DNA of 60,187 nucleotides from Catajapyx aquilonaris (GCA_000934665.2 KZ538593.1:1-60187); one strand, 5' to 3'; numbered from the stretch's first letter, positions 18,416 through 56,007 are shown. Made by a program: numbers and translations. Notes: a model not told the origin generated them from the letters alone.

Positions 18416-18459
18416 TGCACCAATCTGCATTTCAGTTGTATCTTAAATATCTTTCTCTA

Positions 18460-18767: not shown

Positions 18768-19044
18768 AATATAAATAATAAATAATAATGGATACCCCAT
18801 GATAGGCCTCCCTGGGCCTCTTACGGGATAATCTTTTAATTGACCGTCTTTATTCATTGCCTGTCATGTGATAGGTTTGGATAGTGGGAGGAAAGGGAGA
18901 ACCCTGAGAAAACCCACACGAACACGAAGAGAACCCATCGAAACTCTTTCCACATCAGTGTCCTCTGTCCGACCCGGGGATCGAACTCGGGACCTTAGAG
19001 GTGGAAGGCTGTTGCCCTAACCACTACACCACCGTGTTGCCCAT
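18768..19044 (-). mobile_element. SINE family B, copy 2 (full length)
   Basis: Reverse-complement copy of the family B head and core, (ATT)n tail at ~18775-18789, and 18-bp TSD TCAAACTATGTGATAATG at 18750-18767 and 19045-19062. Confidence 0.9.
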
Positions 19045-19488
19045 TCAAACTATGTGATAATGGTACCGTAATGCTTTACATAGCCTAGTGGCAAAATTTT
19101 AAACATATCAGAGTACCAAGCTGGTTTACACGATGATGTTTGCAGGGTTTGTAGGAATCACGAAGTTTATTGATTTAAGAACTCCTGAAGTCCTCATTGC
19201 TGTATTAAGATATTGTTGTGAGAAAAGGGAAGACTCTTATTGACCTGAAAAATAAATTCAGCTTTTTTTCTACATCTGTTGCAATTGACACATTTAGTTG
19301 CCAGGTATGATCCTCTTTCTCATGTCAGTGCACAATTATCAGATGGTTTGACATGGAATGACGCATATGCTTGTGTCTAACCACTTCTGAGCATATTCTT
19401 GAGATGATGATGTTGATGGGGGGACGGGGGAAAATTAGACCTTTTCTCTAACAGACCTTTTGCAGTTCCAGCTTCCCTTCCGGAAGAC

Positions 19489-19566
19489 ATGGAAAGAGAG
19501 CCTCTAAGAGGTCCACCTACGATGACCACAAGTTTTCCTCCTACATACCAATCAGTTGGTGATCAG
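19489..19566 (+). CDS. ClC-c: ClC coding exon 1 (MEREPLRG...YQSVGDQ)
   Basis: ATG at 19489, donor CAG|GTAAAT, phase 0 into 19627. Confidence 0.75.
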
Positions 19567-28184: not shown

Positions 28185-28248
<64 letters not shown>

Positions 28249-29930
28249 TTTTTCAGGAAGAAAGTGACTAAACAAATTAGAAAGCATATTAATGGATGTG
28301 CAAGGTGATCTGCAGTATGCTGTTTTGCACTGTCTTAAGGCCCATACACACAGGCCGTCGACGGTTTTGGTCATTGGTCATGTTGACGCCGCGGACCAAT
28401 CATGACTCGATGTAAACAAGCTCAACACTTGTGTTGCGCTTGTTGATTGGTCCGCGGCGTAAATGCGACCAAAGACCAAAACCGTCTACGTCATGTGTGT
28501 ATGGGCCTTTAATTGTTAGCAGCTCCAAACTTAGTTAACTTTACTGCAATTTGGGTTTGATAAGTAACACCAACTCATTGTGCCCTAAAAGACTAAAGAC
28601 TGAAATGCTCGAATTCTAAAGAAGACTTCAGTATCTAACATTAGAAAGTGACATTTCGATTGTTATTTGTATGACTTTTCCTGGAATGACCCCTTTGCTG
28701 CCGAGTTGGTCTGTACTTTTAATTGTTCTTTTAATGTTTCTGTTGTTCTGTTTTATCCAGGGCTTGATAGGGACATTCTTCATCAAAGCAAACATCTACT
28801 GGTGTCGCTATCGAAAGGTGTCCCGCCTGGGCCAGTACCCTGTGTCTGAGGTTCTTACTGTGACCCTAGTGACCTCCATCTTGGCATATCCCAATCCATA
28901 CACACGGATGCCAACAAGTCAGCTCATCTACTTACTCTTCAGCCAATGCAGTGTTTCCAATACAGATGATCTCTGGTTTGTTGAATGTTTTTATAAATAA
29001 GCATGCTGAATAGGGGGCTCAAAAGAATAAAATAGAGTGTGTTTCTTACTAGAATAGCCAACGGCCATCAGCGTATTCCTCGGACCAAAACAAGTCAAAA
29101 ATGTAGGGGTGAGAAATATCGAGGTGCCCACCAATAACAAAGTAAATGACCAGAAACATTGACCAATGGTTGCCTAGGGAGTGATATGAGGGTGATATTC
29201 ACTTCTGTGAAAGAGGTGATCTCACAAACCCCAACAGTCACAATTATCACCCTCATATCCTGCTTCCTAGGCAACCATTGGTCAATGTTTCTGGTCATTT
29301 ACTTTGTTACTGGTGGGCCTCTCGATATTTCTCCCCCCTACATTTTCGACTTGTTTTGGTCCGAGGAATACGCTGACGGCCGTTTGCCATACTAGTAAGA
29401 AACTCCCTGTATACAATGCTTCGTGTCTCAGACTAATATGCACATCTTGTTTCCCTTTAGTGACTACAACCGCAACTTCACGAATGTGAACTCTGCAATC
29501 GAGATAGCTGCTGCAGGGTCGGGCGTATTTCGTTCAATCTGGCTCTTGTCCCTCGCCTTTGCCTTCAAGCTGGTCATCACCATCTTTACTTTTGGCATTA
29601 AGGTTCCTGCTGGACTATTCATCCCTAGCTTGGCACTGGGTGCCATTGCAGGCAGGATCGTTGGGATTGGAGTTGAGCAGCTTGCATAGTAAGCCTATCT
29701 CCTCCATCATTCATGAAACTGCATCTCATTTACATGTGGCTGTTTTATAACTTGTTTAATATTGTAAATTTTTAGCAACTACCCAACACTGTGGTTCTTC
29801 AGTGGTGAGTGCTCTACTGGAGATGACTGCATAACTCCTGGACTCTACGCTATGGTCGGCGCTGCAGCAGTATTGGGAGGTGTTACACGGATGACTGGTC
29901 AGTCCCCTTCATGAAATGTCTCTCTCTCTC

Positions 29931-29963
<33 letters not shown>

Positions 29964-32205
29964 TCTCCTATAATTCATTTTCTCCTCCTAAGCTTAACCT
30001 AAATGCTTCACCAAGGGCCTTGAGATCCCAAGCAAGAAGTTAGTACATGTATATTGGGATAGAGTTGGCCTTACTGGCATGCGGGAGGGTAGTAGTCGGT
30101 GGGGGCAGCTCGCTGTGTCGCAAAGGCAAGGATAAAGGATGGGCCTGTATCCGCTGAAGATAGGTCTGTATCCACAAAGAAGGAAGGTTATACTTGGTTA
30201 GGTTAGGTTGGTACAGCATGCCCTTTCCAAAATCCAAAAAATCAATCCTTGCATCCTTGCCTTTGCGACACAGCCAAGCTGCCCCCAGCCACCACTCACC
30301 CTGCCACCTCCCGCACGCCAGTAAGGACTACTCTTTTCATATATTGTATGTCGTTGTCCCTGCTGTCACCCGCCCTTGTGGTGGTTGAGTGGTGGTCTGC
30401 TATTGAATTTTCTTTGGCAATGCTGTCATTTTGATATCAGTCATTTGGTCCATGGGTAGATAGACCTTACTGAAGCCCAACAAATTTATTTTTGTGATTT
30501 ATTTTCAATTGCATCTGCGTATGGTTGACTAGTCGGGTTGAATTTGACTTGCCCTTGTAAAATTCTCTATCTTTATTGGCAGTTTGATTATGCATATGCA
30601 GTCTCTGAGGGAAAAGTAAAACCTGAATCTCATATTGGATTACTTGATAGTGTGCCTTCTGATGATTGAGGACAAGCTTACTATTTACAAGCACACTGTC
30701 ATGAATGATGCAATCTATTAGGTGTACAGGTTTTCTACATGCTCACCACTGACAGGTGATGTGGGCATGGGTGTAGACTCAAAAGGCTTTTGCATAAATT
30801 GATCAGCACATTTTATTGACTCTGAGGTGTACAAGATTTAGGCCGGCTAGAGATTTCTCTTGGGATAGCCCCAAGAATCCCTAATATAGGGGCATAGAGT
30901 GCAGGCAAACAGGATTGGCTACCTGGCAGCAGGATGTGACAACACTTATGAAGTGCATGATGATGTATCCAGTAGATAAAAACTCTGCATGTCTTTTGAT
31001 TTTACATTTCTGTGATTACTAATCCTATTTAGTTGGATCTCCCTGATTGTATATTGACTGCATGTTATTTCTCCTTGCAGTGTCCTTAGTGGTGATCATG
31101 TTTGAGCTGACAGGTGGAGTTCGCTACATTGTCCCACTTATGGCAGCAGCAATGGCCAGCAAGTGGGTGGGTGATGCCCTTGGTCGACAGGGTATATATG
31201 ATGCCCACATCAACCTGAATGGATACCCATTCATGGACAGCAAAGAAGAGTTTGCTCACACAACACTGGCAACTGATGTGATGCAACCAAAGTTGAAGGG
31301 TCAGCTGAGCATCCTGACAGAGAGTTCCATGACAGTGGATGATGTGGAGAACCTCATGAAGGAGACAGAGCACAATGGCTTTCCTGTGGTTGTGTCTGGG
31401 GAATGCCAGTATTTGGTTGGGTTTGTGCTTAGGAGGGACCTGAATCTGGCCATCGCCAATGCCAGACGGTGTGTGGATGGGGCATGTGGAGGCTCTCTTT
31501 GTCTCTTCACCAACCACGCACCACAGGGTTACGATGGCCCTCCCCCTCTCAAGCTCAAGAAGATCCTGGACATGGCTCCAATCACTGTCACGGACCAGAC
31601 CCCAATGGAGACAGTAGTTGACATGTTCCGCAAACTGGGGCTCAGGCAGACGCTTGTCACACACAACGGGTAAGTGTTATGGAATACTTTTGTGGTAGAC
31701 CCTTGCTTGTTGAGACAAAGTGGTGTAACAGCACCTCAGGTTGTTCCTGTGCTTAGTGGTAATTTCAGCAAATTCAAGTGATGCATGCATGAGATTTACC
31801 TGTACTTGTCAAGGGAATTGATGGACTGGCCAAGCCTGTGAAGGCCCTGCAGCCCATGAGCTCGGAATTTATTCCACCTTTGATAATTACAACAATATTC
31901 TAACAAAATCAAAGCAATTCAATGAAAACAATTCTTCCACTATCCTCCTGACTCCAAGACACTATCCACTCCCGCCTCATCCAGTTCCAGCATAGTCCAG
32001 ATTGCTAGTGGCAGACCAGCTGCCTTGTCCGCCACCTTTGGTCCTCCTGTCTATATATATATATAGATTTACCTGTACTATTTTCTTTGTTTTGATTGTC
32101 ATGCCCCTTTCTAGGCGCCTGCTGGGAATCATCACAAAGAAAGATGTCCTCCGCCACATCAAGCAACTGGACAATGAGGATCCTAATTCAGTCCTTTTCA
32201 ACTGA
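19489..32205 (+). CDS. ClC-c: H(+)/Cl(-) exchange transporter, ClC-3/4/5 family (Drosophila ClC-c-like), spliced CDS
   Basis: Exons 19489-19566, 19627-19750, (20034-20063), 21292-21641, 24325-24486, 24723-24870, 25235-25374, 27453-27635, 28761-28975, 29461-29688, 29776-29897, 31081-31669, 32115-32205. All introns are GT-AG and phase-compatible: 2460 nt, 819 aa with the microexon. Motifs [20 protein letters not shown] (gating Glu), LFSLEE (proton Glu), GLFIP, IYDAHI and two CBS domains. Confidence 0.95.
19627..19750 (+). CDS. ClC-c: ClC coding exon 2 ([14 protein letters not shown]..)
   Basis: Acceptor GGCAG, donor [15 protein letters not shown] resembles the insect ClC-c N-terminus. Confidence 0.85.
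20034..20063 (+). CDS. ClC-c: Candidate 30-nt ClC microexon ([10 protein letters not shown])
   Basis: Long pyrimidine tract plus AAG acceptor, donor CGG|GTAAGT, phase 1-1 symmetric, no stop. Confidence 0.65.
21292..21641 (+). CDS. ClC-c: ClC exon ([18 protein letters not shown]...NCSQ)
   Basis: Within ORF 21207-21704; TTAG acceptor, CAG|GTATGG donor. Confidence 0.95.
21771..22997. mobile_element. TTAA-flanked piggyBac-like non-autonomous element with internal tandem repeats
   Basis: TTAA|CCCCTTGAGCCCCAGCTATA ... TATAGCTGGCGCTCAAGGGG|TTAA. Four ~140-195 bp subunits begin TACTCTGAAGATA (21831, 22012, 22153, 22348), with one inverted copy at ~22800-22947. Confidence 0.9.
24325..24486 (+). CDS. 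ClC-c: ClC exon (WLTWPEVF...GSGIPE)
   Basis: GSGIPE signature; AG/GT boundaries, phase 0. Confidence 0.95.
24723..24870 (+). CDS. ClC-c: ClC exon ([18 protein letters not shown]...[14 protein letters not shown])
   Basis: Translated by hand (not in the ORF track); carries the gating glutamate motif. Confidence 0.95.
25235..25374 (+). CDS. ClC-c: ClC exon ([10 protein letters not shown]...GGVLFSLEE)
   Basis: Translated by hand; [15 protein letters not shown] motif; AG/GT boundaries. Confidence 0.95.
25974..26284 (-). mobile_element. SINE family A, full-length copy
   Basis: tRNA-like head (GGTTCGAATCC on - strand), (ATT)n tail, and 15-bp TSD AGTTAAGAGGCACTG at 25959-25973 and 26285-26299. Confidence 0.92.
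27453..27635 (+). CDS. ClC-c: ClC exon ([15 protein letters not shown]...GILG)
   Basis: Within ORF 27390-27725; AG/GT boundaries, phase 0. Confidence 0.95.
28185..28246. repeat. (AAT)n microsatellite
   Basis: About 20 perfect AAT units. Confidence 0.95.
28338..28508. mobile_element. PIF/Harbinger (Tourist-like) MITE
   Basis: TTA|AGGCCCATACACAC ... GTGTGTATGGGCCT|TTA; almost the whole element is an imperfect inverted repeat. Confidence 0.85.
28761..28975 (+). CDS. ClC-c: ClC exon ([14 protein letters not shown]...TDDL)
   Basis: Within ORF 28671-29000; CCAG acceptor, phase-2 donor. Confidence 0.95.
29035..29409. mobile_element. TA-flanked foldback MITE filling a ClC intron
   Basis: GTTTCTTACTAG..AACGGCC (29041 onward) is inverted at GGCCGTT..CTAGTAAGAAAC (to 29403); arms ~160 bp. 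Explains mirror ORFs 29095-29298(-) and 29159-29395(+). Confidence 0.9.
29461..29688 (+). CDS. ClC-c: ClC exon (DYNRNFT...GLFIPSL...EQLA)
   Basis: GLFIP motif; AG/GT boundaries. Confidence 0.95.
29776..29897 (+). CDS. ClC-c: ClC exon (NYPTLWFF...[21 protein letters not shown])
   Basis: Translated by hand; conserved [18 protein letters not shown]. Confidence 0.95.
29919..29962. repeat. (CT)n microsatellite
   Basis: Interrupted CT run just after a ClC donor site. Confidence 0.9.
30046..30346. mobile_element. Foldback MITE
   Basis: CCTTACTGGCATGCGGGAGG..GCTGTGTCGCAAAGGCAAGGAT is inverted as ATCCTTGCCTTTGCGACACAGC..CCTCCCGCACGCCAGTAAGG; TA at both ends. Confidence 0.75.
31081..31669 (+). CDS. 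ClC-c: ClC exon ([13 protein letters not shown]...CBS domains...VTHNG)
   Basis: ORF 31047-31673; IYDAHI and CBS1/CBS2 motifs ([19 protein letters not shown]). Confidence 0.97.
32115..32205 (+). CDS. ClC-c: ClC last coding exon ([15 protein letters not shown]...SVLFN*)
   Basis: Typical ClC-3/4/5 C-terminus; TGA at 32203-32205. Confidence 0.95.
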
Positions 32206-32991
32206 GCATAATTTGTGCATTGCAACAATAGTGGCAGCTTAACCTTCTTTCAGTGAAATGGAAACCCCAAACTTTCATCTAGTCACACTCGAAAATGAGA
32301 CGACTAAAGAGGCCACGAGTCAAATTTTTTGAACGAGATTCAGGGATAGAGTTCAGTCATTCAGTCCATTAGGTAATTTTTCTCCCTTTGGGGCTTATTA
32401 TTATTATCATTTTTGGTTCCTAACGATAATAATATTGCATTCCAATAGTTTCGCATATCTGCAGGCAGATTTTGACTTGAAACTTGATTTATTTTTTTTC
32501 TATTGGAGATGTATCTAAAAGATTTGAACTTGGGACAAAGATGACTGAATCTCATGAGATTGGGAGTTTTTAACAAATTAAACCAATGGGAGAGTTAAGT
32601 CGGACAATATGTGGCATAGGAGGGCTGTACATTTAGCTGAGAGCTGCAGCAACTGCTGATCCTGTAAGTTATTTTTGGCATGAAATTAGAGAAGAGGCCA
32701 ATTTTGTCATAATTTATAATTTTATTAGTCTAGAAACACATGCTATTTAATATATAATATTTACCTATGGCAATTTGCAATGTTGGACATCATTTATGGA
32801 AGTGTAGTAAGTTACAATGGAATTGACCGCAGTTACCTGCATTGTCAAAATGCATATCTACACCACTTTCCACAAGTAATGTTCTTGTATTAAGTTTTAT
32901 GAAGGCCAAATTGTAAAGGGATCAGATATTGTCTTCCATTCATGACATTTGAAGCTAGTGACAATTAATGGTGGTTGCTGCAGGTTATTTA

Positions 32992-32997
32992 AATAAA
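32992..32997 (+). terminator. Candidate polyadenylation signal of ClC
   Basis: AATAAA ~790 nt after the stop; an alternative lies at 34882. Confidence 0.35.
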
Positions 32998-33892
32998 AGA
33001 TCAAACGTAACCCTTAATGCACATTTGACTTGGAAGATTCCCAGAACATTTTTAAAAGTCTGCTGAAAGGGTAGTTTTGTACACAAATAGGCTGGGACGG
33101 TAATTAATACTCAATCTGCAATTGTTTTGGGGACGCCCGCAATTTAAACAAAGACGTGTGCTGCTCAGATGAGATGGCCCTCCTAAAATCGTGAAAACCA
33201 AAAGAATAATACAAATATTAATTATTTAGGTGGTAGTAGTTTCCCCAAAATTTCCTTCTTGTTTAGTCAGGTATGTTTTATGTACCATATAATTTATCGA
33301 CGTAATGTTGCAAGCATAATAATTCTGTTGATTATTTTTAGTGGCTGTGTTTCAGTCGTCATTAAGTCTGATTACATCCCCAATTTTTTTCTGCCATATG
33401 TATATATGTTATAGTGTGTACAATTTATGTGCCGAGCGCAATTTTGTTCATATGATGAGAGGATTTGCAAAAATTGTACATTATCCTTCGTTTACATTTT
33501 TTTTCTCTCTCCCCTCACGCTTCTTCCCTTGCACCTGTATAATGTACTGTATATTGGAACAGCGTAAATTATTGCAGCCACTGGGTGTTTTATTTCCCTT
33601 GCATAATTTCAGTCACCTTCATTAGCAAGTAATTGAGAATTCATTATGTACGAGTATGTGAAATGTGCGTATGTAGCTCTTGATGCAAGTTAAAACTGAA
33701 TCCATGTTACAATCGCATACTAATGAAGTTAATATTATTATTTTGTTCCTTGAGAAATTATCCTCACTATGACCATAAAGCAATTTGAAGCCACTAAGTG
33801 AAATATAGCAGAATGTCTCGAGCTTGAATAGTCACTCCCTCCGCAAGTTCTTGACTACCTTAATCACAGAGGCAGAGCAGTGGAATCACCTA

Positions 33893-38177: not shown

Positions 38178-40806
38178 TAATTATAGCTTATTAATTGATA
38201 ATTTGCTTACCAAAAGTTGGAAAACTGGTTTAAGTGTCGCGTACAGTCAAATGCATTTCATTTGCTGCAACTATGCATAATAAGAGTTTAAAGATTTGAT
38301 AAGGGGGGACTGACCCAGCCAAGCCTTTCAGCCCCCGCTGTAACTATACAGGATGCAATTGGGTAATTGGTGAGCACATGCTAATGACCTGGCCAAAATG
38401 TAACCTGGTGACCACCATGGCAGGTAGAGGTGAATTATTTTTGTGGAGGATACACTAAGGACAAGGTGGTGGCACTGAACTATGGAGTTTGTTGCCTTTT
38501 CTATTGAACCTGTTACGGCTCAGGGGACTGCCTGCAATGCACCATATTGGGTGGAGCTATAGCATGGGGGTGGGGTGGGGGGTGGAGGTGGAACTTGGAT
38601 CCATGAAATTCTGCAGGACACTGCACTTTGGCCCCCTTTTTCACAAGTGCATTCTGGCCAGGATCCAAAAATCGAATTTTCTGTCTGGCCGTTATAAGGA
38701 CTCCTAGACATTGATAATAACAGATAGGACTAGTGACTCACAGGATGTGTGGAGCTCAATGACATTTGGATTTGGTGTGACCCATGACTCCATATGTATA
38801 TCATGAATGACTCCTAGGTTCCATTGATTCCTTGATACACACCAGATCATTGGCAACATCCGCAGCGGATTGAGAAAAACCTATATTGGTCACTTGTTGG
38901 TGCCGATATATCAAATGGTTTTTTAGGTACGTTGTTGCAGGTTGAGTCTAGTTGGGATGAACTTTGCTACCTGATACCCTGATATAATCGGAGTGTCTGC
39001 AATGGATCTGAGGATATCTTAAGGAGCTGTGAATGGACCGGTTCGAAGCAGCTGAACAGGACCTTGGAGATCGGTGCCAAACAACACAAAATAGCCCCTG
39101 ATTTTTTTTTTATAACACCCCACCCCCCACCCCCTCCTGGACTTATGCTCTTGTTTCATATGTCACCCTGCATGTGAGGTTCACGTGAGGAAGGTTGAGG
39201 ACCTTTCGCAAATGTCCCTTTTGGCAAGCAAACGCGCAGACGCAACATGGTTGCCACGTGGGGTGCGCGTGCTCCAGAAACTTTATGGCCGGATTAATTC
39301 CGAACCGGACCACCTACAGCCACGATTTTTGGCTAAAGTAACGCGTATGGAGCATTTGCAACTTTAGGCAAAATGTGTCCATAAGTGTGCATCCGTTTGG
39401 GTGCAAAAACGGATCCAAGTTCTGCAATATGGCGTTGGGTGTTGGCAACACCGCATGGGTTTCGACCAATCGGGAAGAGGGGTGGCCTATTTTTTTCTTA
39501 TTTTTTGTTCGGAGCTTCTTCTATCGGGCTGTTGTTGCGTCAGGGCGGCGTGTCCTCTTCGTCCAAAAGTCCAAGGGGCTTATGAGAGACTAGCGTCTGG
39601 CTTCCAACTTGCCACTGGTGCATTTTAAGCGGGACTTAAGTGAGATGGGACTAGTCTGGTCTTGACCCGGAGCTTGGTCGGTAAGCTCCATATTTAGTGT
39701 ATTTGTTTAAAAAAAATTTTTTTTTTTTGAAGTGTTTGTTTCCCATCTTTGCGTTTTGCGGTGTACGCAGATTTGTATTTTCGGAGAATTTTGTGGTGCA
39801 GAATCGGTTTGGGTTGACGCAGGGACGGTTTTAGGACGGCTCGATATTCGGCACAGTTTCGCCAAAATTGGGGCCAGCATTTACGGTACCGTATGCGCGA
39901 GCGGGATATTTCGTGACAATTAGCGTGCATGACGCTAGCAATTACTCACGGCTCTTTGCATCATAATATTCCACGTCATTTGCTTTTTTTAATTTAAAAA
40001 AAAGTGATCTTTGACCCAAGTTTTTGCGCAAGTTTTTAAAATTTTGTGTGAATTTTTCTCATGTGTTTTTTTTTGACATTGACTGAATCTCATTCAACCC
40101 CAAAAAATTTTGAGCCAGCCGGGCTCTGACGTAAGTGGTCACGTGACCTTCGACTCCTAATATTCGCGATGTGACAATCTAATCGCATACATATACAAGG
40201 ACACGTGTTCTCACATATAATAACTTGCAAAAGATCCTTCGAAAGCACAAGTAGCAATCGATAGTGCCTTTTTGGAATCCTGACAAGACTCAACGAAGGA
40301 CAAGGCGAAAGAATAAGAGGGGCCTTAAAAATAGGACCTAGGATACCGCTTCCCTGGATGTGGCACAAGTTCATACCCTCCAGTTTTTATGCCATTTTTA
40401 AAACTTTTTTTAAAAAATGTTTTGTACAAAAAGTGTGCCACCCAGGTCAGTGATGTCAGTTGGACCTTGCGCCGGGAACGGGTTCAAAATAGATTATATC
40501 CGGATCGGTGTGGATTGGCATGCCAACGCATGTAATTTCGCACATGTGATCAGTTGGTGCCCACACCTGCAATTAGATATGTCGCAACTGGTCGCTAATA
40601 TGCATGACCCAAGAGCAACCTTTACATAAGTTTTTTTTTTCTCAACATGATTGTTCACCCCAAAGAGGTCGTATTTAGCGTGCAAGGCGATGGGAACATC
40701 TTGGGAACATGTATAAAAAAAAGGAGGTGCATTGGCTGCTGGAGGTGAATGCGGCCTTGTGCTGAGTCAAAGCTGCAGTAACCTTGCTAGAGTGCTGTAA
40801 CTTGGC

Positions 40807-40943
40807 ATGGGCCAGAACCCCACCTCTTTAAGTCCGGTTGCTATTGTTGCTGGAACCGCAGTGTGTCAGGGTCCCACGATTACTTCATCCATGCCGGGTA
40901 TTTCCGTCTTCCGGGGGACAAACCATGGCCTCTTTTTAGGCCG
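40807..40943 (+). CDS. cu: Candidate alternative first coding exon of nocturnin (MGQNPTSL...GLFLGR)
   Basis: Open from ATG 40807 to strong donor CG|GTAAGG, phase 2, in frame with the exon at 47080. Confidence 0.45.
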
Positions 40944-42985
40944 GTAAGGACTTACGCGGCTCATTTGCTCTTATGGTTACGTAAGGCGGGGGCGATGGGA
41001 GGCTGGGTAAGGGGGGAATAGTATATTATGGTGCTTCAAGGCTGTGGACGAGGTTGTAGCAGCAGGGAAGTTTTGAGATGGTGGGTTCAAGGGTGGTGCC
41101 CTGGACCAAGGTGGACCTACTTTGCGACCCTCCAGCGGTGCAGATATGCCGTTTTTGCCGGGGAAGCGGTCAGTCGACTTAGCCTTGGGAGTTTCCGCTA
41201 CTAAGAATGAAAAAAAATAAATATAATGGGGAGGGGGTAATAAAATTAATCGGGGAGATATGTTGTAAGGAGTTTTGCAAATTGTAATCCGCAGATTCAG
41301 ATAGCTGAAGGCGTATTGAGGAAAACGGGGAGGAATATTGCGATTTAAATAAGTTTATATATGGGCGAGGATTAGGAGAACAATGGCCGCGGAGATTTCT
41401 TCATTGGAAATAAATTTGCAAGTCTGGTAATGGGATGAATGATGAATAAATAACTGGAATTGGATGGAGAAATGACGACCAATACTTGGGAAATAGAAAG
41501 GAAGAAACTAGACAAAGACAGGGAAGAAATTATTTTTTCCTGTACTATGTGATGAGAAGAAATCCTATAGTTCTTGGTGCTTGTCGTGAGACTAGCAGTG
41601 AGTAATGCATGTCACGCACGAAACGTGACGCGCAGCCATTAATGCACATACGTCACAAACTGCCAAAGACGTGTACGAAGGATTAGCCAATTAATATTGG
41701 TTGAAACCATACAATTAGGGGTGTGTGGCGCAGAATTTATTACCTGGTGTGTATGGGTCCAAGTGGGAAGCACTGTGATGAACGCATGAACCAGATATAA
41801 GAATACAACAAAATCATTTTCTGTTCCGCATTTGGCAGCATCAATGTTCAACGTATATTGAGGTCGTGAAACATTTGCTCATAATTGAGATTTTTGAGCA
41901 ATAATAATCGATGCAAAGATGTGATCGCCATTGACAGAGATGGACGAAGATGGACAACGAGCCGGTTTTATGTGTTATGACAGCGATGACATGAATGGAT
42001 GGCGGAGAACATGACTGGAAGGAAAAGTAGATGCACAAAATGTTGTGCAAACGACGATTACCGAAGTGCATAGCAAAGAGCAAGGTGTTAGGCCATCATT
42101 CAATACCATGACATTGAAAGGCTTCTCAATATTGTGGCCGTCGGCGTATATTTTGGTTTTTATCGCTTATATCCAATTTTATACGTCTACAATTACGTCT
42201 TATTTTGGGCTGAGCCACCTTTTCTTGTGGACATCGTGTACGGTACTGTCTTTCCTGCACCGACTTGTCCAGTACCCATTTTATGACGTCTTCGTCAGTG
42301 TCTCAAAAATGTGTGACGTATGTTTATAAATAATATATTTGGATGAGCAGCCGCTTTACGCGTCTATAGAAAGCCCATATTTTCCGTCACCATGTTTACC
42401 ACAGGATTGGAAGACGCAAGATATATGCACATTATTTCGTTCGTGATATTACGAAGTGAAATACAATCTGCAAAATTGCACTGATATGTGCAAAATCAAA
42501 CACAAAATCGAAATCAAATACTTGAATTGTCCAGGAAGGACAAAAGAGCCTAATCAAGAACAATGTTCGATTGTTGTGCGTGGGCACCAGCAGCCACACC
42601 TGACCTTCGCTGTGATTGGCCTGGGAGTGACCCTGCGCGAGGTGTCCTGAGATGATGGCCCGGAGGAGGAAGGTCCCCCCTCGCCATCAGGTACAATTAT
42701 TTGACTATTGGAGCAGGAGGAAGATGGCGAGGAGGGAGGGTGTGGGAGGATGGAGGCAAAGAAAAATAAAATGGTAAATGGTAAAGGGGAAAGGAGGAGA
42801 GGCCCCTCCTTCCCTCACCTTCTTCCCCCCCCGCCTTCCCCGGTGACCAGCACCTTGGTATAAAAAGGCAGGTGCGCCTCCATCAGGGCCGCTCTGGATG
42901 ATGCAAAGTTAAAAGGTGGAGCAGACAGAAGTGCATCATCAGACTCAACCAGATACACTGAAGGCGCACACCGGCACATTCCACC

Positions 42986-43134
42986 ATGGACCCCAGGGAC
43001 TTCAGGGAGTCGTTGGCTTTGGCCGAGCAGTTGGCCCGTGACAGCCTGAGCCGTACCCGTACCGAGAAGAGGAAGGTATCCAGGGAAGAAGCTGGATACG
43101 TGCCTCCCAAACAGCTGTTGCTGTATTTGGTCAG
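42986..43134 (+). CDS. cu: Nocturnin first coding exon (MDPRDF...YVPPKQLLLYLVR)
   Basis: CCACCATGG start with an upstream in-frame stop at 42959; donor AG|GTATGC, phase 2. PPKQLLLYLVR-MGSF resembles an insect nocturnin isoform N-terminus. Confidence 0.85.
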
Positions 43135-46100
43135 GTATGCTCCACTCGATTTGTCCCCGGAAGATTCCGCCCATAGATAAAAGCGCTCCATAAGCAGGAG
43201 TCTGGGTGTGTACCGGTACAAGCAATACATTGTCATAAGGAAACGCCACTTGCCCAAAACAAGGAAGATCATTCCAAATAATATCTTGCCAGGAGTTTGT
43301 TGGAATCCTCACACTGCTCTCCTGGCAAGATATTGTTTGGAATGATCTTGCTTGTTTTGGGCAAGTGACTTTTCCATTTGACAATGTATTGTGTGCTTGT
43401 ACCGGTACACACCCAGTCTGTTGGGAGGTCCTCACATTGATTCTACGCTGGGTTACTGTGCCACAAGGCTCAATGCATTATATCGCCGAAAAAGATGGAG
43501 AAAATTTGCATTGAAACCAAATGCAAAATCGTCTCCATCTTTTTGAGCGATATTACGTGTGAGAGCGACGTGTAACCGACGTCCTTGCACACGGGCATGC
43601 ATCCCTATGTACCTGGATGGACACCGAGGCACGTGTCAGAAGCGATCAACGCCCTTATTAACAGGCACGTAACAACACGGTCCGGAATGTGCCTCAACGC
43701 CCATCCTACAGGATGGACCACAGTTCAAGTTATATATTGTTTACTTCGTTGTAAACTGGTTGCTGGTAGTAAACAATCTGGAGCCAGGGATTTGGGCAGC
43801 GGACCACCCTGTGTACCATAGTTGACCAACAGCATTCTTCGGACACTGCTGGACCGCACGTCTATTTCCGGATTGCTTCCTTTTGCATAACTTCCGTGAC
43901 GTCCATCGGATGCCCTATGACCCCCATGGGCCAAGCAGACTTCGCCGCCAGATCTGATACAATTGTTGTGCATATGAACCTGTGTGCACACTGTCAAGGT
44001 GTTTATTTCTGGGGACATGCGTTTCGACAGAGATGGCGGGGAAACGAAACAAGACAAGGATAAATACGTCACGAGATTTCCGCGTGGCCTCAAATTACGT
44101 TCGCTTTTTTAATATATTTTTTTTTCTAAAGTCCTAATTATCACTTGCGGACGAAAGTGATCAGGGAGAAGGCATGGCCGGAAATCCTTGTCCTCAAGTC
44201 GGAGGACGATCAGTTTTCCCCCAAAAGCGCGGCGCACTGGTTCACCCTCATGGGCAACGGGAAATGAACGTTCGGTACACCATCGCTTTGGATAAAAAGT
44301 ATGGATGATTTACGAGCTCGGGACGTTTTTTGGGCCCGATTTTTATGGGAGGTCGATTGGCCCGTAGGTGATGTATGCGTCGTCAAAAACTGGCTGTTAA
44401 TTGGATTTCCTTCTGAGGTGGGGGGGTTTTTTCGATTCTGATGAGACCTTGGGGTGGCGCCTAACATGCCGGATAATTGACAACCACCCTTCCTGAAAAG
44501 GTACACCTGGTTTTTTGAAGCGCGCCGGTAATTAACATGAAAATGTGACCAAGGTCGAGACGCCTTTCTATGCCATTGAGGTCGGCTTCCTCCTGCTCTT
44601 GACCTTAGGCTATAAGGAAACTGTGCGTTTTTGGAGGTGTCCAGATGACGTGACTGATAGTACGAGTCTTAAAAGACTTACACCTGACGTCAATAGTGCG
44701 CATCATAGCGCATCATTTGCATATACTTTAGACTCTTTTTTTTACGTCACTTATTTGTGAGAAACGCAACAACCCGTAGGTTATCGTGGGTTAGTGGTCT
44801 GCGTGTAATTGGATGGGAAGCAATCACGAGAGTTGGTGTCTTGTGTGATGCAAACAGGGCAACATTAGATATGAATGATTTGGTCCCCAGGAATTTGGGA
44901 TTCGCGGTTGTCCCCCGTCCAGGACAGTAGCAAACAATGCTGGTCATCTTCAGAGTGGGGCGCCGATGCCCCACGTTGGTGACCCAAGCGTTGGATCAGG
45001 TCAGGTGAGTGTGCTGGTGCAGGTGATTTGTTTGCTGTTTTTTTCCCCGTATTTTTTTGTGGAAGTGGTGTTGATGTGCTCCTGATATGTGGAGGTCACT
45101 GACTGAGCGACACTGGGAAAGGGCAAAACCATTTCAGCAGCCTTGACCTTGGCTAGGCTCTTGAGCAGTAGTGTTTTTTTGTTTTGTTTGTGGGCTATTA
45201 ATTAAGGTGGTCACGGACATGACAGGATTACTGGTCTGGTGTTATCAGTTACATGTTGTTACTGTGAATATATGTAGTTGCTACATACTAGATGATGACA
45301 TTTCAATACCTTTTAGAAAGGTAATGGGGAAAGTGGCACAATTTTTACTAATGAGTTGTGTGCCATAATATTTATATCAAAAGGTTAGTTTCACCACGAA
45401 ATCGCGATTCAGGTGATTCATTCTATGCGTCATCCCAATTTATTGCTGTATATTTACAACAGTATAACTGTGCAATTAGAATATTCAGATGACTGCACAC
45501 CTGGATGAGTCAGAATATGTAGGCTTGCTACATTTCTGAGATTTCTTATATATTTATTGTGATAGGGTTACATCCTCTCAATATCTTGCCAATGTGCAAT
45601 ATGTTGTTCAGTGCTGTAAATGGTTAATTTTTGGATAGCGTTGGGTTGATAGGCATCGCGGAAGGCGGGAGGGTGAGTGTTGGCTGGGGGCTATGGCTGT
45701 GTCTCAGACACGGAGCAGGCAGGCTGTAGGATAGGCGTGTATCTGCTGAACATCACTCCTTCCAAATTTTTTACGTATATTATGTTTCACTTACGGCACT
45801 CTCTTCCCCACCAATGCACATGTCATAAGAACAAGGCGATAAAACATAAACACTACATTATTTTATAAATTGGGTACTTTAATTTGTGTGTTTATAAAAT
45901 GTACTTACCACAATAGGTGACCACATCAAGTCACACAGCATGTCAAATTGGCCTTTTAAGAGTGTAATGAAAGTATCCCTTCCAGGATTGATTTTGTTGA
46001 GAGGCATGATGATTTGTATTGGAAGTTGTTCCTAATAATATTAGATAAAACAGTTAAACTCATAGTGTTCAAATATCTGTTCCTTGAGTAGTGAAAACCT

Positions 46101-49100
46101 GGGCTTGAAAATTGAGAATTTGCAAAATTTTGCGCACTTGAAATGACATTTGAATATTCTAGGAACCTGCTAAAATGTTGATTTTAAATTTAATGACAAC
46201 AGTATATGATGACCCTTTTTTGAATTTCATGTTGTTCACTTATATTTAATAAAATCATTCATGGTTGAATGTGTCAACATCTGAAACGGAGTATTACAAT
46301 GGGGAATCATGCTTGCATGCATTTTAAATTTATTATAATTAATGTTCATAAGAAATATGCCTATCAAAACATTGGCCGTCATCTACTTTTGTCATAAAAA
46401 TAAAAATAAAAATTCTGGCAGTTTCCCCTCCGTAATTTCGACAATAATAGGGCTATTGTGAAAGTTATTTGAGGCACATTCCATGATAAACTTATTTTAT
46501 ATTTGCAAGTGTGTACAATTTTGAAGATGATATTTTTATTCTCATAGCATGAAGGTCTGGGAAATATGACTAACTTGTAACAGTTGTATAATAAAGCAGA
46601 TTTTCAAATACAGTATTTAAATCAGTTGTGATACAGGGCATATTTTATAATAAAACTATTATCTAGAAAAATACAGTGAAATGTTGCAACATTACATAGT
46701 CGCATAAATGCATAATGGAGGAATAAATTATGGTTGGAAAGTAACCACTTTCATTGCCATACTCACTCTGTCCCTTTAGCAAATATCGGCCTATACACTG
46801 CAACAAAGAAACTGATCCCCGCCCAGTATTTAGTTATGTAGAGTATTGCCCTCCCAGATTATTGATGTCTGATTTCATGTTCATATGGATGACTACTGTT
46901 GGTACCAATTGTTTGGGAGTAACCATGTTCCATTTAATTGCACCCTGTGTCATGGTGTTGGTTATTGTGGGGTCAGAATGGAATCCATTGGGCACAAGTA
47001 CAATCTATTCTGTAGCAGGTAGAGAGGGATGAGGTAAAATACTCAGGCATACTGTTATCATTGACTATTTTTTGTCCAGGATGGGAAGCTTCACATCAGC
47101 TCCCAAGATGCTGAATGATGACCTTCAGGACAGTGACATAGACTTGCCACCCCACCTGCACAGGGAGGAGTTGGTGTCCCGCTGCAGGAAGGAACTCGCC
47201 CACTTTCCGCCACTCCTCGGCAGGTCCTTCCAGAAGGTACAGTGGCAGATGAGTGACTCCTGGGAAGGAGAAGATCTGGCTGGTATGCCCCTATCACAGG
47301 CTGCCATGGGGCAGGGTGGCCCTTTGTCCACTCCTGTCAGGCTCTTTTGGTCTCAAGCCCCTCGAGGTAAGTGTATAGTTCATCTGCACTGTCTATTGAG
47401 TTGATGAAAGTAATATTAAGGCAAAAGTGTGATTCTGCAATGCTAACCTTGCCTATGCTTAAACTGTGGACAATTCAAGTTATTGACAGGAGTGTTTGAG
47501 GTGACTCACAACATATCTGTACAGTGAGGTTACACAAGCTGTGGGGAAAGAGTACCATTTTTTCTGCATTTACATTGACAAGTTTGTATTCTGGAATTTC
47601 ATGGCTAAGGGATGAGTGACAGTGGCACTACAGTGGAACTTCCATAATTCAGACATCTCTGAGTTGAAGAAATTATGACATTGGCGGGTCACAATGGAAA
47701 GTAGTAGAAATTCAACTTTCCCAAGTTGAAATTTTAAACCTCGAAGCTATCCATAATTTGAACTGAGGGCAATAATGTTGATTCTATGGTTTAAACTTCT
47801 TATTTTTTTGTTTCTGTGAGTTGATGTTTGTGCCATATTTGGGTGTGGGTTACACCACTACACTGCCTAAACATTAAGGCGGACCTAAACTTGTGTTACT
47901 TGACAGCGGCGTCAAGGAGGCATTTTTGCATTGCTAATAACATTAATCATTTATTTAGAGTGAAGATCACTGTCTGTGTCACCAGAGGTCTATCACAAAC
48001 TTTTTTTTACACTCCTTGCATTGAATATTATGGAACAACATTTTTGTTTATTTAACATTAGACAATGTGGATATAAAGTAGAGCTGGTCCTTGTGCAGTT
48101 TTGTGCCATAATAGTTTTAAAACTTCTCACAATGGAATCTTATAAACTGGAAGTTCTTTTTTTTTTTTGGTCGCTTGGATATTCGAGTTTTCCATAGAAG
48201 TTACACTGCATTTCAATAATAAGGAGGTGTTCTAACTAGACAATCATGAGAAGATGCAATTCACTACTCACATCTCTTGAAGTGGACGTCATTGAAATGA
48301 TGCTCCATAGTCTATGATAAATTGTAGGCCTAGTCTGGTTGTACACTGCTCCTGCGCAAAACTATGTGCATGGACCGAGATGGTTGAGACACCATAGTGC
48401 ACATCTCTATTGCATATATGCTGCCATTTGGGACAAAATATTTGGGAAGGGAACATTTTAATTCCCTTAAAATGCCCCCTCCTCTAATATTTTGCCTCAA
48501 AAGGATTTTCAGCGTAGGCGAGTACCAGACGGGCCTGTCACCTACAGAGTGCCAGCTACGGGTACAGTTTGCAGCAGAAAGTGATATGTGGAAGGAGATA
48601 ATAATTGGCCCACAATGGGTGCTGGTGTAGCGATACTGATCCTTACTACTGGATCGATCCTACCACAGCTATTGAGCATAATTTCAGTGACGTACACGTC
48701 ATTTGATGTGAGTAGAGTGAATTGCATCTTGGCGTGTAGTTGGAACACCACCTTTCATGGAGAATTGAGGTTTTATGTCATGTAGGCAAGTTTTACAGTT
48801 GAAGAAGCATGCAATGGAATCATCCAATAATTATTGTTGTTGTTGCCTGTTCCACTTCAGGCGTGTGGGCATTCCTCATACATATGTGACATGTACAGTA
48901 CCGCTCATAAAGAATGGTATGACTATTGACAAAATGTTTAACCTGTTCCCGACCCCTGGGTCACCAGCATGTTGATAGGGGTTGTGAGAAGAGCAGGGAA
49001 AAGGTAATTACATTGAAGAAACAAGAGAAGAAGAAAACAAGGCAAAGGGTAATAAAAATTTCGGGAAAAATCGGGGTGGGGTCATACGTATCGCCAGAGG

Positions 49101-52100
49101 TCGAGGAAAGGGTGTTCATGGTGTCGTGATGAAATCAGGTTGGAAATAATGCTAGACAGTCAGGAGGAACATTGTGTGGCCAGAGTCTTTATGAGCAGGA
49201 CTGTATAGTAGAGGCAACAGGCAACCAGGTATGATTTCTTTTTCCAAGTTGTCGCACGTTACCAATCTGTATTTCTAATGTTATAATTACAATACAGCTA
49301 ATCGAGTATATATAAAGCCCCTAGACGAGAATATAGGGAGAATATAGGGAGAATATAGGATATAGGAGGATGGAAAAGATGGGTGCAGGGACTGTATTAA
49401 TAAAGCTGGCTGAAGTATGTTTGGTACTGGGGAAGGGAAATCTCAAAGCTTGTATCCACTGTCAAGTTTACAGGACTGGAAAACTGGGACACTGGAGGTA
49501 AATTCAGTGCTTATCCAACACAAGAGCTAAGTGAGGCACAAGCTTGACTTTAGTCAGGGTTCACTTTCATGAGCACTCCTGAGTCATGACTTCTCATGCC
49601 ATCTCCTATGCTCTCACCCAGCACCCAGGTCAGGAGCTTCCCTTCCATCTCATAGCAGGTGAAGAAAGACAGAATCTCTGATTGGGTTCTGACCATGATT
49701 CCCCTGGCAAATTGATGAACTATTTCCAAGCACTTGCTGGGAGCATATCCATGCTACAGTACTCTTCACACTCTTTACAGGTTTGAACTCCTGTAAATTT
49801 GACAATGGATGTGAGCCTTCGTTTAATTACTTTGTTTGGCTTTGCCTTTTTAACATAATTACAATGGCTGTTATTTTCACAACTAATGTATGAATTTTTT
49901 CTTGCAGATGAATCTCAAGAAGGCAAACGCATTCGAATTTTGCAGTGGAATGTTCTGGCTCAAGGTGTGTTAAGTTGCTATTGATTGTAGGTATGAATGC
50001 AAAGTCTCAGCTTTCAACACCTGGGATTATATTACAGCTCTGGGCCTACAGAACGACAACTTTGTATGCTGCCCAGATGAGGCGTTGGAGTGGAAGACAC
50101 GTCGCTTTCGCATCCTGGAGGAGTTGCTGGAATATTCTCCAGACATAATCTGCCTGCAAGAAGTGGACCACTACAACTTCCTTAAGAAGTGCCTGGGCAC
50201 CCTGGGATATGTGGGAGCCTTTTTTCCCAAGCCGGATTCACCATGTATCTACGTGCAAGGGAACAATGGGCCTGATGGATGTGCTGTCTTCTTCCAGAAG
50301 GACAAGTTTGAACTGGTGCAGACTGTAACACGTGTTATGGAGGTGTGGCACGTGCAGAGCAATCAGGTGAGGAATTATTGTTTGGTGATGATCGGGGGGG
50401 GGAAAGGAAGTAAACGGTGAGCCTTACAGCTGTTTCACATAGTCAACATAAGTGTGAGTGGGGAAGAAGTGGGCGTTTAGGATGCGGAATGTGAGGGGTG
50501 ACTATTCACATACTCCGCACTTGGGCTGTGGGTGGCAGCTAAGAAGTATGAATTTCTTAACTCCATCCTGGTGTACTTTTGGCCGACAGGAAGTGAGGGG
50601 TTGTAGGAGTTAACGCGGTGACACCCAATAGCAAGCGAATGCATGTTAATGCAGAATGGACAGAGATGCTTATGGAACACTGAGCAAGGAGAAGTCAGCC
50701 GACCTACAAAGCATGGTCAAGTACACATGGCAGAAGTTGATAAGGCATATTTTGAGATCATACTGGGCAAAGAGTAAATGTACCATTGGAACCACTGTCG
50801 TTGCAGACTCATTGTAACCACAATACCCCCGTGTACCTATTTAATTCATACCCCATTATCAGCCATCGGCTCTTTAGGGGGGAAGTTTGTTTTGCCTGGA
50901 ACTCTTTACTTTCATTTTACTGTGCTCTTTGGGATAGGATAGGGACGGAAGGAAGCGGCTGTGGCCTATTAATTACGGAAGCAACTCCGGAATTTTCCTG
51001 GAAGGACCGTGGGAAACCGCAGAAAACCACGGTCAGAGTTGCCGGCCCCGGGATTTGATCCCAGAACCTCCCGATTAGCAGTCGGACACCATATCCACTC
51101 CTCCAAACTGCTTCGGTTACCCCCGTGTACCTATGTACTTTTCTATATGGAACATAACTAGTGAAAATTATTACCTTGTACTCCCAGGTTAATGACTAAA
51201 ACAGGTGTCGCCAGATAATCGGAAAACACGGATAATCGGAAAATGGTCCTAGAAACACTGGTAATGCTATGTTAGCAGTGTGTAGCAGTGATACGAAAAC
51301 CGAACCAATTTTTTCGGATTTTAATTTTTAATTTTATTTTTTGGCGATGCACGGGTAATCCGCAACACAGATAATAATCGGGAGTAGAGTATATATGGCA
51401 AAGTAAATGTTTTAAATGTCAATAATTGTAATTTTCATTTGACTTATCTCATGAAAAATACTTACAACATTATAATACTAAGTGTAAGCTGTAAATAGTG
51501 TCAGATATTGTCGTATGTGAAAATGCAATTTATTAATATTAAATGCATTTATAAAGCCATTATGAAAGTATTGCAGTCAAATAAGCTCATACTCCAGTTT
51601 GTTACTTTTTTTGCACTCACTATCCCTCTTTGCTTTGCTACAGCTGAGATTTAAGGAGTCAAACTTTCAAAGTGCTCCCATGTAAAATTGACTTTCATGC
51701 ACTTAAGACAAAATAATACTCAGGCGACGAAATGTTTACTTAGTTGCCAGGTAATGCCAGCGCCGCCTATGCCGAAAAGGAAACATTCAGGGACTGCTCA
51801 TATGTCCAGCACTCTACTAATATTGCTGTTTTTAACACTGTTTGCTTGCTAAACCTGATGCGAATTAAGTTTAAATTTAATATCATTGTAACAACTACGT
51901 TTTAAATGTAAAACAACAAAAGGTCTTGGCAAGGAATGCATACCTGCCAAGAGTTTTTAAAAATCCTGTGTTTGAAGAACATTTTTTCAGTAATGACATC
52001 TTATCTCAGACTCAAGAGATTAATACTCTCAGACTTAAGAGTGTTACTGGTACCATAGAACTTTGTGGGAATCATTTCAGAACAGCTCCTCTAAATTAAG

Positions 52101-55100: not shown

Positions 55101-56007
55101 TACTTGATGAATTTTAATGTGATTTTCCTTGTGGTTAATTACATTTCTGTACAGCATATGTGGCACGTACTCGTAGCATAATATGTTATCAATTTGTAAT
55201 CTTTTGTGGCATATTCAATGGACAATTCACGTTAATCTTTTTTGTAAATTGACAGTCAGATGCTGTAATCTTACATTTGCTTTATTTTCACTGGGTCTGT
55301 GCTTATATCAATTACATCATTTTTCTCCTTTTCATTTGATCCACCCTTGTATTTTCAGTTTTCAAAGGGGTAGTCTAGGATAAGTGCTTACCTCACCAGT
55401 TGATTCTGTGGGTGGGAGGGAAGGGGTAGGTGGGGGGAAGCTTTTGAATGAGTGCTAGTACAAAATTTCAACAGGCTGAAGACTTAACTGTAACTTCACT
55501 CCAATTTCTTAACAGGTGGTGGTCCTGGTTGTCTTGCGCCTGAAGTCAACCGGGCAAGAGTTTGTTGTGGCCAGCACCCACTTGAAGGCAAGGCAAGGTG
55601 CCTTACTTTCAACACTGCGAAATGAACAGGGGAAGGACCTTCTCGAGTTACTGGATCAGCACTGGGGAGGTCGACCTATTGTGGTGTGTGGCGACTTCAA
55701 TGCGGAGCCTTCAGAGCCAGTTTATTCCACCTTAATTAGTCAGCCTCGGCTTGGCCTCAAAAGTGCCTACACGGCCATTGACGGTGCCAGGGAGCCACCA
55801 TACACCACTTGGAAGATCAGGGAGGAGGGGGAATCATGCCACACCATCGACTACGTCTTCTATTCTCAGCGCCACTGGAGTGTGGATTCCTTGTTGAGCT
55901 TCCCAACAGCACAGCAGATGGGACCTGGGAGAGTACCATCACTGCAGTATCCCTCAGATCATTTCAGCCTGGTAGTGGATTTGGTCATGAAGCAGACCAA
56001 TTCATAG
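42986..56007 (+). CDS. cu: Nocturnin (curled; CCR4-like EEP family, NADP(H) 2'-phosphatase), spliced CDS
   Basis: Exons 42986-43134, 47080-47366, 49908-49964, 50038-50366, 55516-56007 (1314 nt, 437 aa), all GT-AG and in phase. Motifs RMGSFTSAPK, IRILQWNVLAQALG, PDIICLQEVDH, NGPDGCA, THLKA, GDFNAEP, YTTWKIR, TIDYVFY, YPSDHFSL. Confidence 0.95.
44937..45004 (+). CDS. cu: Alternative first coding exon of nocturnin, putative mitochondrial presequence (MLVIFRVGRRCPTLVTQALDQVR)
   Basis: CAAACAATG start, consensus donor CAG|GTGAGT, phase 2 in frame with 47080 (410 aa isoform). Confidence 0.65.
47080..47366 (+). CDS. cu: Nocturnin first common exon (MGSFTSAPKM...QAPR)
   Basis: TTTTTTGTCCAG acceptor, G|GTAAGT donor; ORF 47072-47404. 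Confidence 0.92.
49908..49964 (+). CDS. cu: Nocturnin exon (ESQEGKRIRILQWNVLAQ)
   Basis: Translated by hand; first EEP motif WNVL; phase 1-1. Confidence 0.92.
50038..50366 (+). CDS. cu: Nocturnin exon (LGLQNDNF...CLQEVDH...VQSNQ)
   Basis: ORF 50085-50420; catalytic QEVD. Confidence 0.96.
50841..51117 (-). mobile_element. SINE family A, full-length copy
   Basis: Very similar to the copy at 13823; 17-bp TSD TACCCCCGTGTACCTAT at 50824-50840 and 51118-51134. Confidence 0.92.
52106..52902. mobile_element. Non-autonomous DNA element with ~145-bp near-perfect TIRs
   Basis: ATTATATCAAAAACTTTCCCTTCGG..CAAGCAATT (52106-52247) is inverted at ~52762-52902; repeated GTAAGACCT motif; separate internal hairpin ~52291-52419. 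Confidence 0.88.
52930..53708. mobile_element. Degraded second copy of the piggyBac-like family at 21771
   Basis: Shares AGAAGTCCCTAAA, GCCAACGGTTAG, AAATATACGGAATAT..TTGAGAAC and TCTGGCAC segments with 22440-22760; degenerate right end TATAGCAGGGAGCGAACGGGC|TTAA. Confidence 0.7.
53719..54141. mobile_element. pogo/Tigger-like MITE
   Basis: CTGTTGAATCCGGATA ... TATCCGGATTCAACTG|TA with TGTTATAGCCGAGG-type repeats. Confidence 0.8.
54250..54662 (-). mobile_element. Possible Helentron-associated (DINE-1/HINE-like) element
   Basis: Terminal hairpin TAAGGGGC-TATC-GCCCCTTA (54641-54660) next to an A/T run, short (CAA) repeats, and an inverted duplicated core (54327-54350 vs 54504-54527). Left limit approximate. 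Confidence 0.45.
54695..54831. repeat. 137-bp near-perfect hairpin (MITE-like)
   Basis: GGTACTATCAGTCCACCAAGAATTGTCGTAGC...CGAGCACTTCT, C-run loop, AGAAGTGCTCG...GCTACGACAATTCTTGGTGGACTGATAGTACC. Confidence 0.92.
55516..56007 (+). CDS. cu: Nocturnin last coding exon
   Basis: THLKA, GDFN, TIDY and SDH catalytic motifs; TAG at 56005-56007. Confidence 0.97.
   Translation: MVVLVVLRLKSTGQEFVVASTHLKARQGALLSTLRNEQGKDLLELLDQHWGGRPIVVCGDFNAEPSEPVYSTLISQPRLGLKSAYTAIDGAREPPYTTWKIREEGESCHTIDYVFYSQRHWSVDSLLSFPTAQQMGPGRVPSLQYPSDHFSLVVDLVMKQTNS

Follow-up and report, generated by a model that had tools for sequence, protein, structure and literature searches.

We analysed a 60,187-nt stretch of the Catajapyx aquilonaris genome (GCA_000934665.2 KZ538593.1:1-60187; the whole of it is called the window below, and all positions are counted from its first letter), in which an earlier reading (the original prediction) had placed an array of up to four alternative first exons upstream of the common exon of a nocturnin gene. 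The 39–47.4 kb interval is very probably the 5′ end of an arthropod nocturnin gene laid out on the plan standard for its family, in which alternative first exons are joined to a common exon with its own Met-Gly (MG) start, and the locus probably uses two or more alternative first exons. Among the four candidates one exon is proven by homology, one is plausible and two are unsupported; it is improbable that all four are real.

Identity of the gene and its common part

By its matches the locus is a true nocturnin (curled/NOCT) orthologue in the arthropod Catajapyx aquilonaris, and its product is a predicted NADP(H) 2′-phosphatase of the EEP superfamily. Pfam family PF03372 (Exo_endo_phos) was matched by exon 4 (E = 4e-09) and exon 5 (E = 2.4e-14), and in a search for structural relatives with the same two exons the best solved relative was human Nocturnin (exon 4, 6mal_A, E = 2e-34; exon 5, E = 2.8e-41), whose structures 6mal_A and 6bt1_A stood well ahead of CNOT6L, PDE12 and ANGEL2. 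The 387-residue short form that starts at 47081 aligned collinearly with arthropod nocturnins (residues 1–383 to 1–387) at 57–60% identity, E ~1e-170. NADP(H) phosphatase activity is reported for the human and fly proteins in PMC6542800. The top matches, for nocturnin and for the neighbouring gene alike, were insect proteins, mainly from Polyneoptera; no close relative was found, the top identity over the last exon being 65–69%. The common part of the gene consists of exons 2–5, whose splice sites are all canonical (a slash marks the splice junction here and below):

47080..47366, plus strand: exon 2 (common), acceptor ttttgtccag/G at 47079/47080
49908..49964, plus strand: exon 3, canonical splice sites
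50038..50366, plus strand: exon 4, first half of the EEP catalytic domain, PF03372 and human Nocturnin match
55516..56007, plus strand: exon 5, second half of the EEP domain and TAG stop, PF03372 and human Nocturnin match

Exon 2 brings its own start codon: ATG GGA AGC at 47081 follows directly on the acceptor G (47080) and opens the peptide MGSFTSAPK, which we take to fit the N-myristoylation consensus. The intron frame just upstream (open reading frame 47033–47401) holds no ATG, so that 47081 would serve as the start in any transcript that enters exon 2 with no ATG in frame upstream. Four candidate first exons lie upstream of this exon:

39570..39680, plus strand: E1a, candidate non-coding first exon, donor TCG/GTAAGC, in-frame TAG, two tiny upstream open reading frames
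40807..40943, plus strand: E1b, doubtful candidate coding first exon of 45 codons and two bases with an MG start, TATAAAA at 40712
42986..43134, plus strand: E1c, coding first exon of 49 codons and two bases, confirmed by homology
44937..45004, plus strand: E1d, plausible candidate coding first exon of 22 codons and two bases, basic presequence-like peptide

The boundaries given in the original prediction proved exact in the sequence, with GT donors at 39680 (TGGTCG/GTAAGC), 40943 (AGGCCG/GTAAGG), 43134 (GGTCAG/GTATGC) and 45004 (GGTCAG/GTGAGT). Its statement that the last three close ATG-initiated frames in phase 2 also held: the frames opened by ATG 40807 (45 codons), ATG 42986 (49 codons) and ATG 44937 (22 codons) are each free of stops up to the donor, where two bases are left over and therefore make an Arg codon when joined to G 47080, and after splicing each of the three remains open as far as the stop codon of nocturnin. 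The in-frame stop that it had seen in the 39680 exon proved to be a TAG, ten codons ahead of the donor in the phase that joins exon 2, and this exon has an ATG frame in no phase.

N-terminal extensions of arthropod nocturnins

Using the last exon as query we retrieved 120 nocturnins and sought an MGSF-type motif within their first 260 residues. The motif was present in 114, being the start of the protein in 15 and preceded by an N-terminal extension in 99. These extensions end in R (81 of the 99) or K (5 of the 99), the pattern expected from a conserved phase-2 junction of the form NN/G. Recurrent types could be distinguished among them: class A, ending LLLYLVR (27 of the 99, of which 25 were found by regular expression and two added by eye), occurs in insects, Daphnia, mantis shrimp, penaeid shrimp, a millipede and a horseshoe crab; class B (18, grouped by eye) comprises Arg-rich peptides of 22–34 residues ending PR; and class D (12, likewise grouped by eye) is a looser set ending ‘LQ..QR’. 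Lineage-specific forms were also present, and database isoform names for arthropod nocturnins run up to ‘isoform X7’. Since recurrent classes of extension stand before a fixed MG start, a first-exon array is the normal state of this gene in arthropods. The general idea that first exons bring different N-termini onto a common exon is thus borne out across the phylum; for the present locus homology demonstrates it only for 42986–43134.

A class-A first exon at 42986–43134

That E1c is a genuine coding first exon encoding an arthropod-wide module is proven by homology. Its peptide ends LLLYLV(R) immediately before MGSFTSAPK, and a Daphnia sinensis protein (P0001) has the same module directly before MGSFTSAPK. 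Profiles of the extension classes were scanned over the 918 donor-terminated phase-2 peptides of 31.7–47.08 kb; the class-A profile gave E = 1e-15 at the 43134 donor, and apart from overlapping frames of the same exon nothing scored better than E = 7. Against the 99 extensions the best pairwise score of the E1c peptide was 116, for a shuffle null of 33.8 ± 4.1 (reached by none of 200 shuffles), and its codon score exceeded the 99th percentile of background frames. The ATG stands in a strong Kozak context (CCACCATGG), and a TATA box with a TCAG 24–27 nt downstream of it lies ahead of the exon:

42859..42865, plus strand: TATAAAA box, upstream of E1c

The exon that the original prediction had labelled as giving a ‘charged’ N-terminus is therefore supported by the class-A profile. 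When N-terminal peptides were compared with the 99 extensions, this one matched class A, and those ending at 45004 and 40943 matched none.

An AlphaFold2 model of a class-A orthologue (P0004, from a 25-sequence alignment, mean pLDDT 79.4) has in its extension a helix at residues 4–30, a disordered linker and, at moderate confidence, a short helix at 59–69; the module is accordingly predicted to have an amphipathic helix joined by a linker to a short hydrophobic helix in PPKQLLLYLV. The fold prediction for P0004 gave no clue to the function of the module, and literature searches, which were not aimed at the motif itself, found no described function for an LLLYLVR-type module. With 49 residues placed before the Gly, the E1c isoform cannot be myristoylated at that residue.

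The intron that follows E1c contains a near-perfect foldback of ~220 nt (43199–43419), beginning 65 nt downstream of the E1c donor, with 73-nt arms of 92% and outer 26-nt arms of 96% complementarity. As RNA it has a minimum free energy of –159.3 kcal/mol (z = –22.3) and no Rfam match; it could be an element resembling a miniature inverted-repeat transposable element, or a source of long hairpin RNA. A second, smaller inverted repeat lies in the same intron at 43480–43553 (28-nt arms, 86% complementarity, 18-nt loop).

The remaining candidates

Donors in 31.8–47.08 kb were scored by a crude position weight matrix. By this measure E1d has the strongest donor of 50 (12.82 bits), and we lean slightly towards 44937–45004 being a real first exon. 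Its peptide, with a length of 23, four K/R, one D/E and a muH of 0.75 on our own hydrophobic-moment score, falls in all these properties inside the range of the 18 class-B peptides, and its codon score lies at the 90th–95th percentile of background frames. Among the length-matched phase-2 frames of like composition on the plus strand (9 of 39), only E1d is closed by a strong donor. The class-B and class-D scans of the 918 peptides gave nothing significant, the best class-B match being E = 0.063 at a GC site at 35048. As the ‘mitochondrial’ exon of the original prediction, E1d agrees in length and charge with an Arg-rich class of 22–28 residues in other arthropods. It would add a basic presequence and would be the candidate most likely to correspond to their Arg-rich first exons of mitochondrial type; a presequence that ends in R just before MG would be compatible with mitochondrial import. 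We also observed that an 11-nt string, GGATGGGAAGC, which runs across the exon 2 acceptor G into the MGS start (47079–47089), recurs at 44811–44821, 126 nt upstream of the E1d ATG, where it would open a short upstream reading frame beginning MGS; the recurrence is probably due to chance.

The exons ending at 40943 and 39680 are, as specific exons, not supported beyond chance. We regard it as doubtful that E1b is a real first exon, although it has the fourth-strongest donor of the 50 (10.28 bits) and a TATAAAA at 40712, 95 nt upstream of its ATG. None of the class profiles matched its peptide in the 918-peptide scan, and its best score against the 99 extensions was 37, which 13% of shuffles attained (null 31.4). 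A phmmer search with the peptide of 40807–40941 against 1.84 billion representative sequences returned three matches, all to large proteins with many matched stretches; a nocturnin domain is absent from all three, bacterial surface-protein domains being present in two and no Pfam family matching the third, and we rejected them as relatives, their matches being driven by repeats and composition. The ‘MG-starting hydrophobic’ exon of the original prediction thus found a nocturnin relative neither by profiles, nor among the 99 extensions, nor by phmmer. The codon score of E1b is near the 90th percentile, with another frame of the same stretch scoring higher. An AP-1-like site, TGAGTCA, is present at ~40773, upstream of the E1b ATG.

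The 39680 exon is equally doubtful. Its donor scores 7.69 bits, which ~30 donor-like sites in the region equal or better, and what further speaks for it is position, at the start of a CpG-rich domain and between two pairs of E-boxes (see below). The idea that E1a is a decayed duplicate of E1c was rejected: the two share only an 18-nt match at the donor (16 of 18 bases), a similarity reached by 2% of shuffles.

A CpG-rich domain with clustered motifs

All four candidate first exons fall in a domain rich in CpG, within which lie two clusters of regulatory motifs, E-boxes and cAMP response element (CRE) half-sites (CpG content is given as the observed/expected ratio, o/e):

39001..45000, no strand: CpG-rich domain containing all four candidate first exons, CpG o/e 0.71–1.05 per kb
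39182..40207, no strand: E-box cluster, CACGTG at 39182, 39255, 40140 and 40202, flanking the 39680 candidate
44646..44749, no strand: CRE cluster, four TGACGT half-sites including a full palindromic TGACGTCA at 44685–44692, upstream of E1d

The CpG o/e is 0.27–0.52 in the 3 kb before this domain and 0.21–0.47 in the 6 kb after it; the domain ends at 45.0 kb, with E1d near its downstream edge, and this position, like the CRE cluster, counts in favour of E1d. The profile is suggestive of an unmethylated 5′ promoter or regulatory domain at 39001–45000 followed by a methylated gene body. Both gene bodies in the window are strongly CpG-depleted (o/e 0.2–0.6; 16001–33000 and 45001–51000), which suggests germline gene-body methylation in Catajapyx.

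The whole window contains 11 CACGTG sites, of which four lie in 39182–40207, for a local first-order Markov expectation of 0.28 (none of 2000 simulations reached four); with uniform placement, the chance of four of the 11 falling inside 1030 bp is 0.0056. The CRE cluster, 190–290 bp upstream of the E1d ATG, has four half-sites for a local expectation of 0.18 (P = 0.0005). TGACGT is frequent more widely, with 31 sites in the window for 15.9 expected and 11 in 39.9–44.8 kb for 1.78 expected locally (none of 2000 simulations reached 11). The D-box-like motif TTAYGTAA was not enriched (seven observed for 5.79 expected). CRE control of nocturnin is known from Xenopus. For vertebrate nocturnin, PMC6284557 cites control by E-boxes. 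In the intron separating the 39680 and 40943 candidates, at 40127–40145, a TGACGTAA element stands 7 bases upstream of a palindromic GTCACGTGAC E-box; the E-box at 40140 follows a TGACGT half-site at a distance of 7 bases. The sole similarity of the nocturnin 5′ region to the rest of the window is a 51-nt match of 82% identity between 45658–45706 and 30264–30314 (minus strand).

The neighbouring gene

Upstream of nocturnin on the same strand is a gene for a CLC-3/4/5-type H+/Cl– exchanger (19477–32205, plus strand), found by tblastn as ten exon segments, one of which has 83–84% identity with polyneopteran insect proteins. Its coding sequence ends at ~32205, which leaves the nocturnin 5′ region ~15 kb to itself. 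In Dendroctonus (D910_02304/02305) and Pyrocoelia (RI129_010582/010583) the locus tags of the two genes are consecutive, which suggests that this neighbourhood is conserved in insects.

Proposed mechanism and competing explanations

On the reading that we prefer, a first exon ending two bases into a codon joins exon 2 in frame, usually making Arg from AG/G or CG/G, and one without an in-frame ATG leaves the start at 47081 and yields the MGSFTSAPK form with its myristoylation-type start. E1c, which has a TATA box of its own and an ATG in strong Kozak context, adds a 49-residue module and buries the Gly, E1d would add a basic presequence of 22 residues, and a non-coding first exon somewhere in the CpG-rich 39–45 kb domain may yield the short form. 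Separate promoters could take different inputs, through the E-box cluster at ~39.2–40.2 kb and the CRE cluster at 44.65–44.75 kb. The 47081-start form would be the counterpart of the myristoylated, endoplasmic reticulum (ER)-associated mouse NOCT (PMC13241770, PMC12507031) and of fish variant II (PMC10779419). A bolder version, which we entertain only tentatively and think unlikely, has class A as an ancient module marking a third nocturnin state, neither mitochondrial nor myristoylated, with a promoter of its own for each first exon, such that clock (E-box) and cAMP/Ca (CRE) signals would route the NADP(H) phosphatase to compartments.

Several results weigh against the interpretation of the region as an array of first exons with their own promoters. 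Among the donors of at least 7 bits in 31.8–47.08 kb, ATG frames of at least 20 codons end in phases 0, 1 and 2 at 5, 2 and 5 of the 34 on the plus strand and at 5, 4 and 3 of the 22 on the minus strand, so that phase-2 frames at strong donors are not enriched over other phases or the opposite strand. A strong donor with a phase-matched ATG frame is not above background and therefore identifies no exon without homology or RNA; the four-donor array that the original prediction had taken as a special pattern, accurate in its coordinates, is yet statistically within this background. For E1d in particular, the class-B profile gave E = 10 and the class-D profile did not list it among the 918 peptides, it matched none of the 99 extensions (score 24, attained by 82% of shuffles; null 26.6), and frames of like composition make up 9 of the 39 length-matched phase-2 frames on the plus strand and 7 of the 31 on the minus strand. 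Nor is CpG richness confined to 39–45 kb, being found also at 0–16 kb and 51–55 kb, and the intervals of the motif clusters were delimited after the sites had been seen.

These chance levels, together with homology support for E1c alone, speak for the alternative that only 42986–43134 is genuine, the other three being chance pairings of donor and reading frame. The short form would then come from an unrecognised non-coding exon, from an intronic start a short way upstream of exon 2 or from leaky scanning, and the intron frame above 47081, having no ATG, would allow translation to start there in a transcript lacking an upstream in-frame ATG. We think this unlikely: two or more N-terminal classes occur in nearly all well-annotated arthropods, the best donor in 15 kb is that at 45004 and the frame it closes is presequence-like (a coincidence roughly estimated at ~0.2 in the region), and the strong context of the E1c ATG argues against leaky scanning. 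At the other extreme, the original prediction would have all four exons real, with four promoters giving mitochondrial, charged, MG-starting hydrophobic and short forms. The four donors and three frames are indeed present and all inside the CpG-rich domain, E1b has its TATA box and fourth-ranked donor, E-boxes flank E1a, and as many as seven isoforms (‘isoform X7’) are annotated in other arthropods; against this, E1b and E1a are without relatives, codon usage in the E1b stretch is higher in another frame, some 30 sites are as good as the weak 7.69-bit donor of E1a, and chance gives about as many phase-compatible frames, making the proposal very unlikely.

It is more improbable still that a separate transcription unit, not nocturnin, accounts for some of the upstream ‘exons’, whether an RNA associated with an enhancer or promoter or a small, unannotated gene lying between nocturnin and the chloride-channel gene. 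There would be space for one in the 7 kb between the end of the channel coding sequence (32205) and 39.5 kb, and 39–41 kb has its own E-box cluster and TATA box; yet none of 80 open frames of at least 35 residues on the plus strand of 31.0–47.4 kb had a Pfam match apart from the channel’s own exon, no Rfam family was found in the window, and repeats shared with the rest of the window were absent. Our preferred reading remains that of a family-standard array in which E1c is probably joined by at least one further first exon.

Comparison with known systems

PMC12507031 names only two NADP(H) phosphatases, nocturnin and MESH1, so that the location of nocturnin decides which NADP(H) pool it drains. 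First-exon encoding of compartment choice in an arthropod would be useful for annotation and for the choice of constructs. The promoter-encoded switch advanced in the original prediction was right in kind, and not new, being in print for fly (PMC6542800) and fish (PMC10779419); with the principle also published for mouse, no new question is opened here. What the present analysis adds is the arthropod-wide LLLYLVR-type exon and the CpG-rich 39–45 kb domain with its clustered E-boxes and CRE half-sites, and the differing motif clusters at the candidate promoters supply a testable hypothesis of input-specific isoform choice.

The arthropod orthologue in Drosophila melanogaster, curled, likewise has one catalytic body with several N-termini: of the six isoforms described in PMC6542800, two have a mitochondrial signal. 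Across arthropods the common part begins alike, with an MGSF-type start, in a comparison of 120 proteins that did not include Drosophila nocturnin. The fish gene follows the same logic. In gar and goldfish, according to PMC10779419, noc has an exon 1a encoding a mitochondrial targeting sequence, a non-coding exon 1b that leads to a myristoylated MG start at the exon 2 ATG, and a coding exon 1c. The vertebrate introns between exons 1 and 2 are in phase 1 in that account, in contrast to the phase-2 junction found here, and the fish variants were confirmed by mRNA sequencing, whereas the Catajapyx first exons are read from genomic sequence. Class-A modules were found here in arthropods alone, and exon 1c of fish is very short.

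In mammals NOCT exists as a long form that is mitochondrial and as a short, N-myristoylated form, cytosolic and associated with the ER, that begins at an internal MG (PMC13241770, PMC12507031), with two in-frame start codons described in PMC12507031. In mouse there is also an annotated transcript that starts in intron 1, by which the residues of exon 1 are replaced by four others (bioRxiv 10.1101/2020.01.12.903534). The choice in mammals is described as made mainly by alternative translation initiation on one mRNA, whereas in arthropods, Catajapyx included, it would be made by separate first exons.

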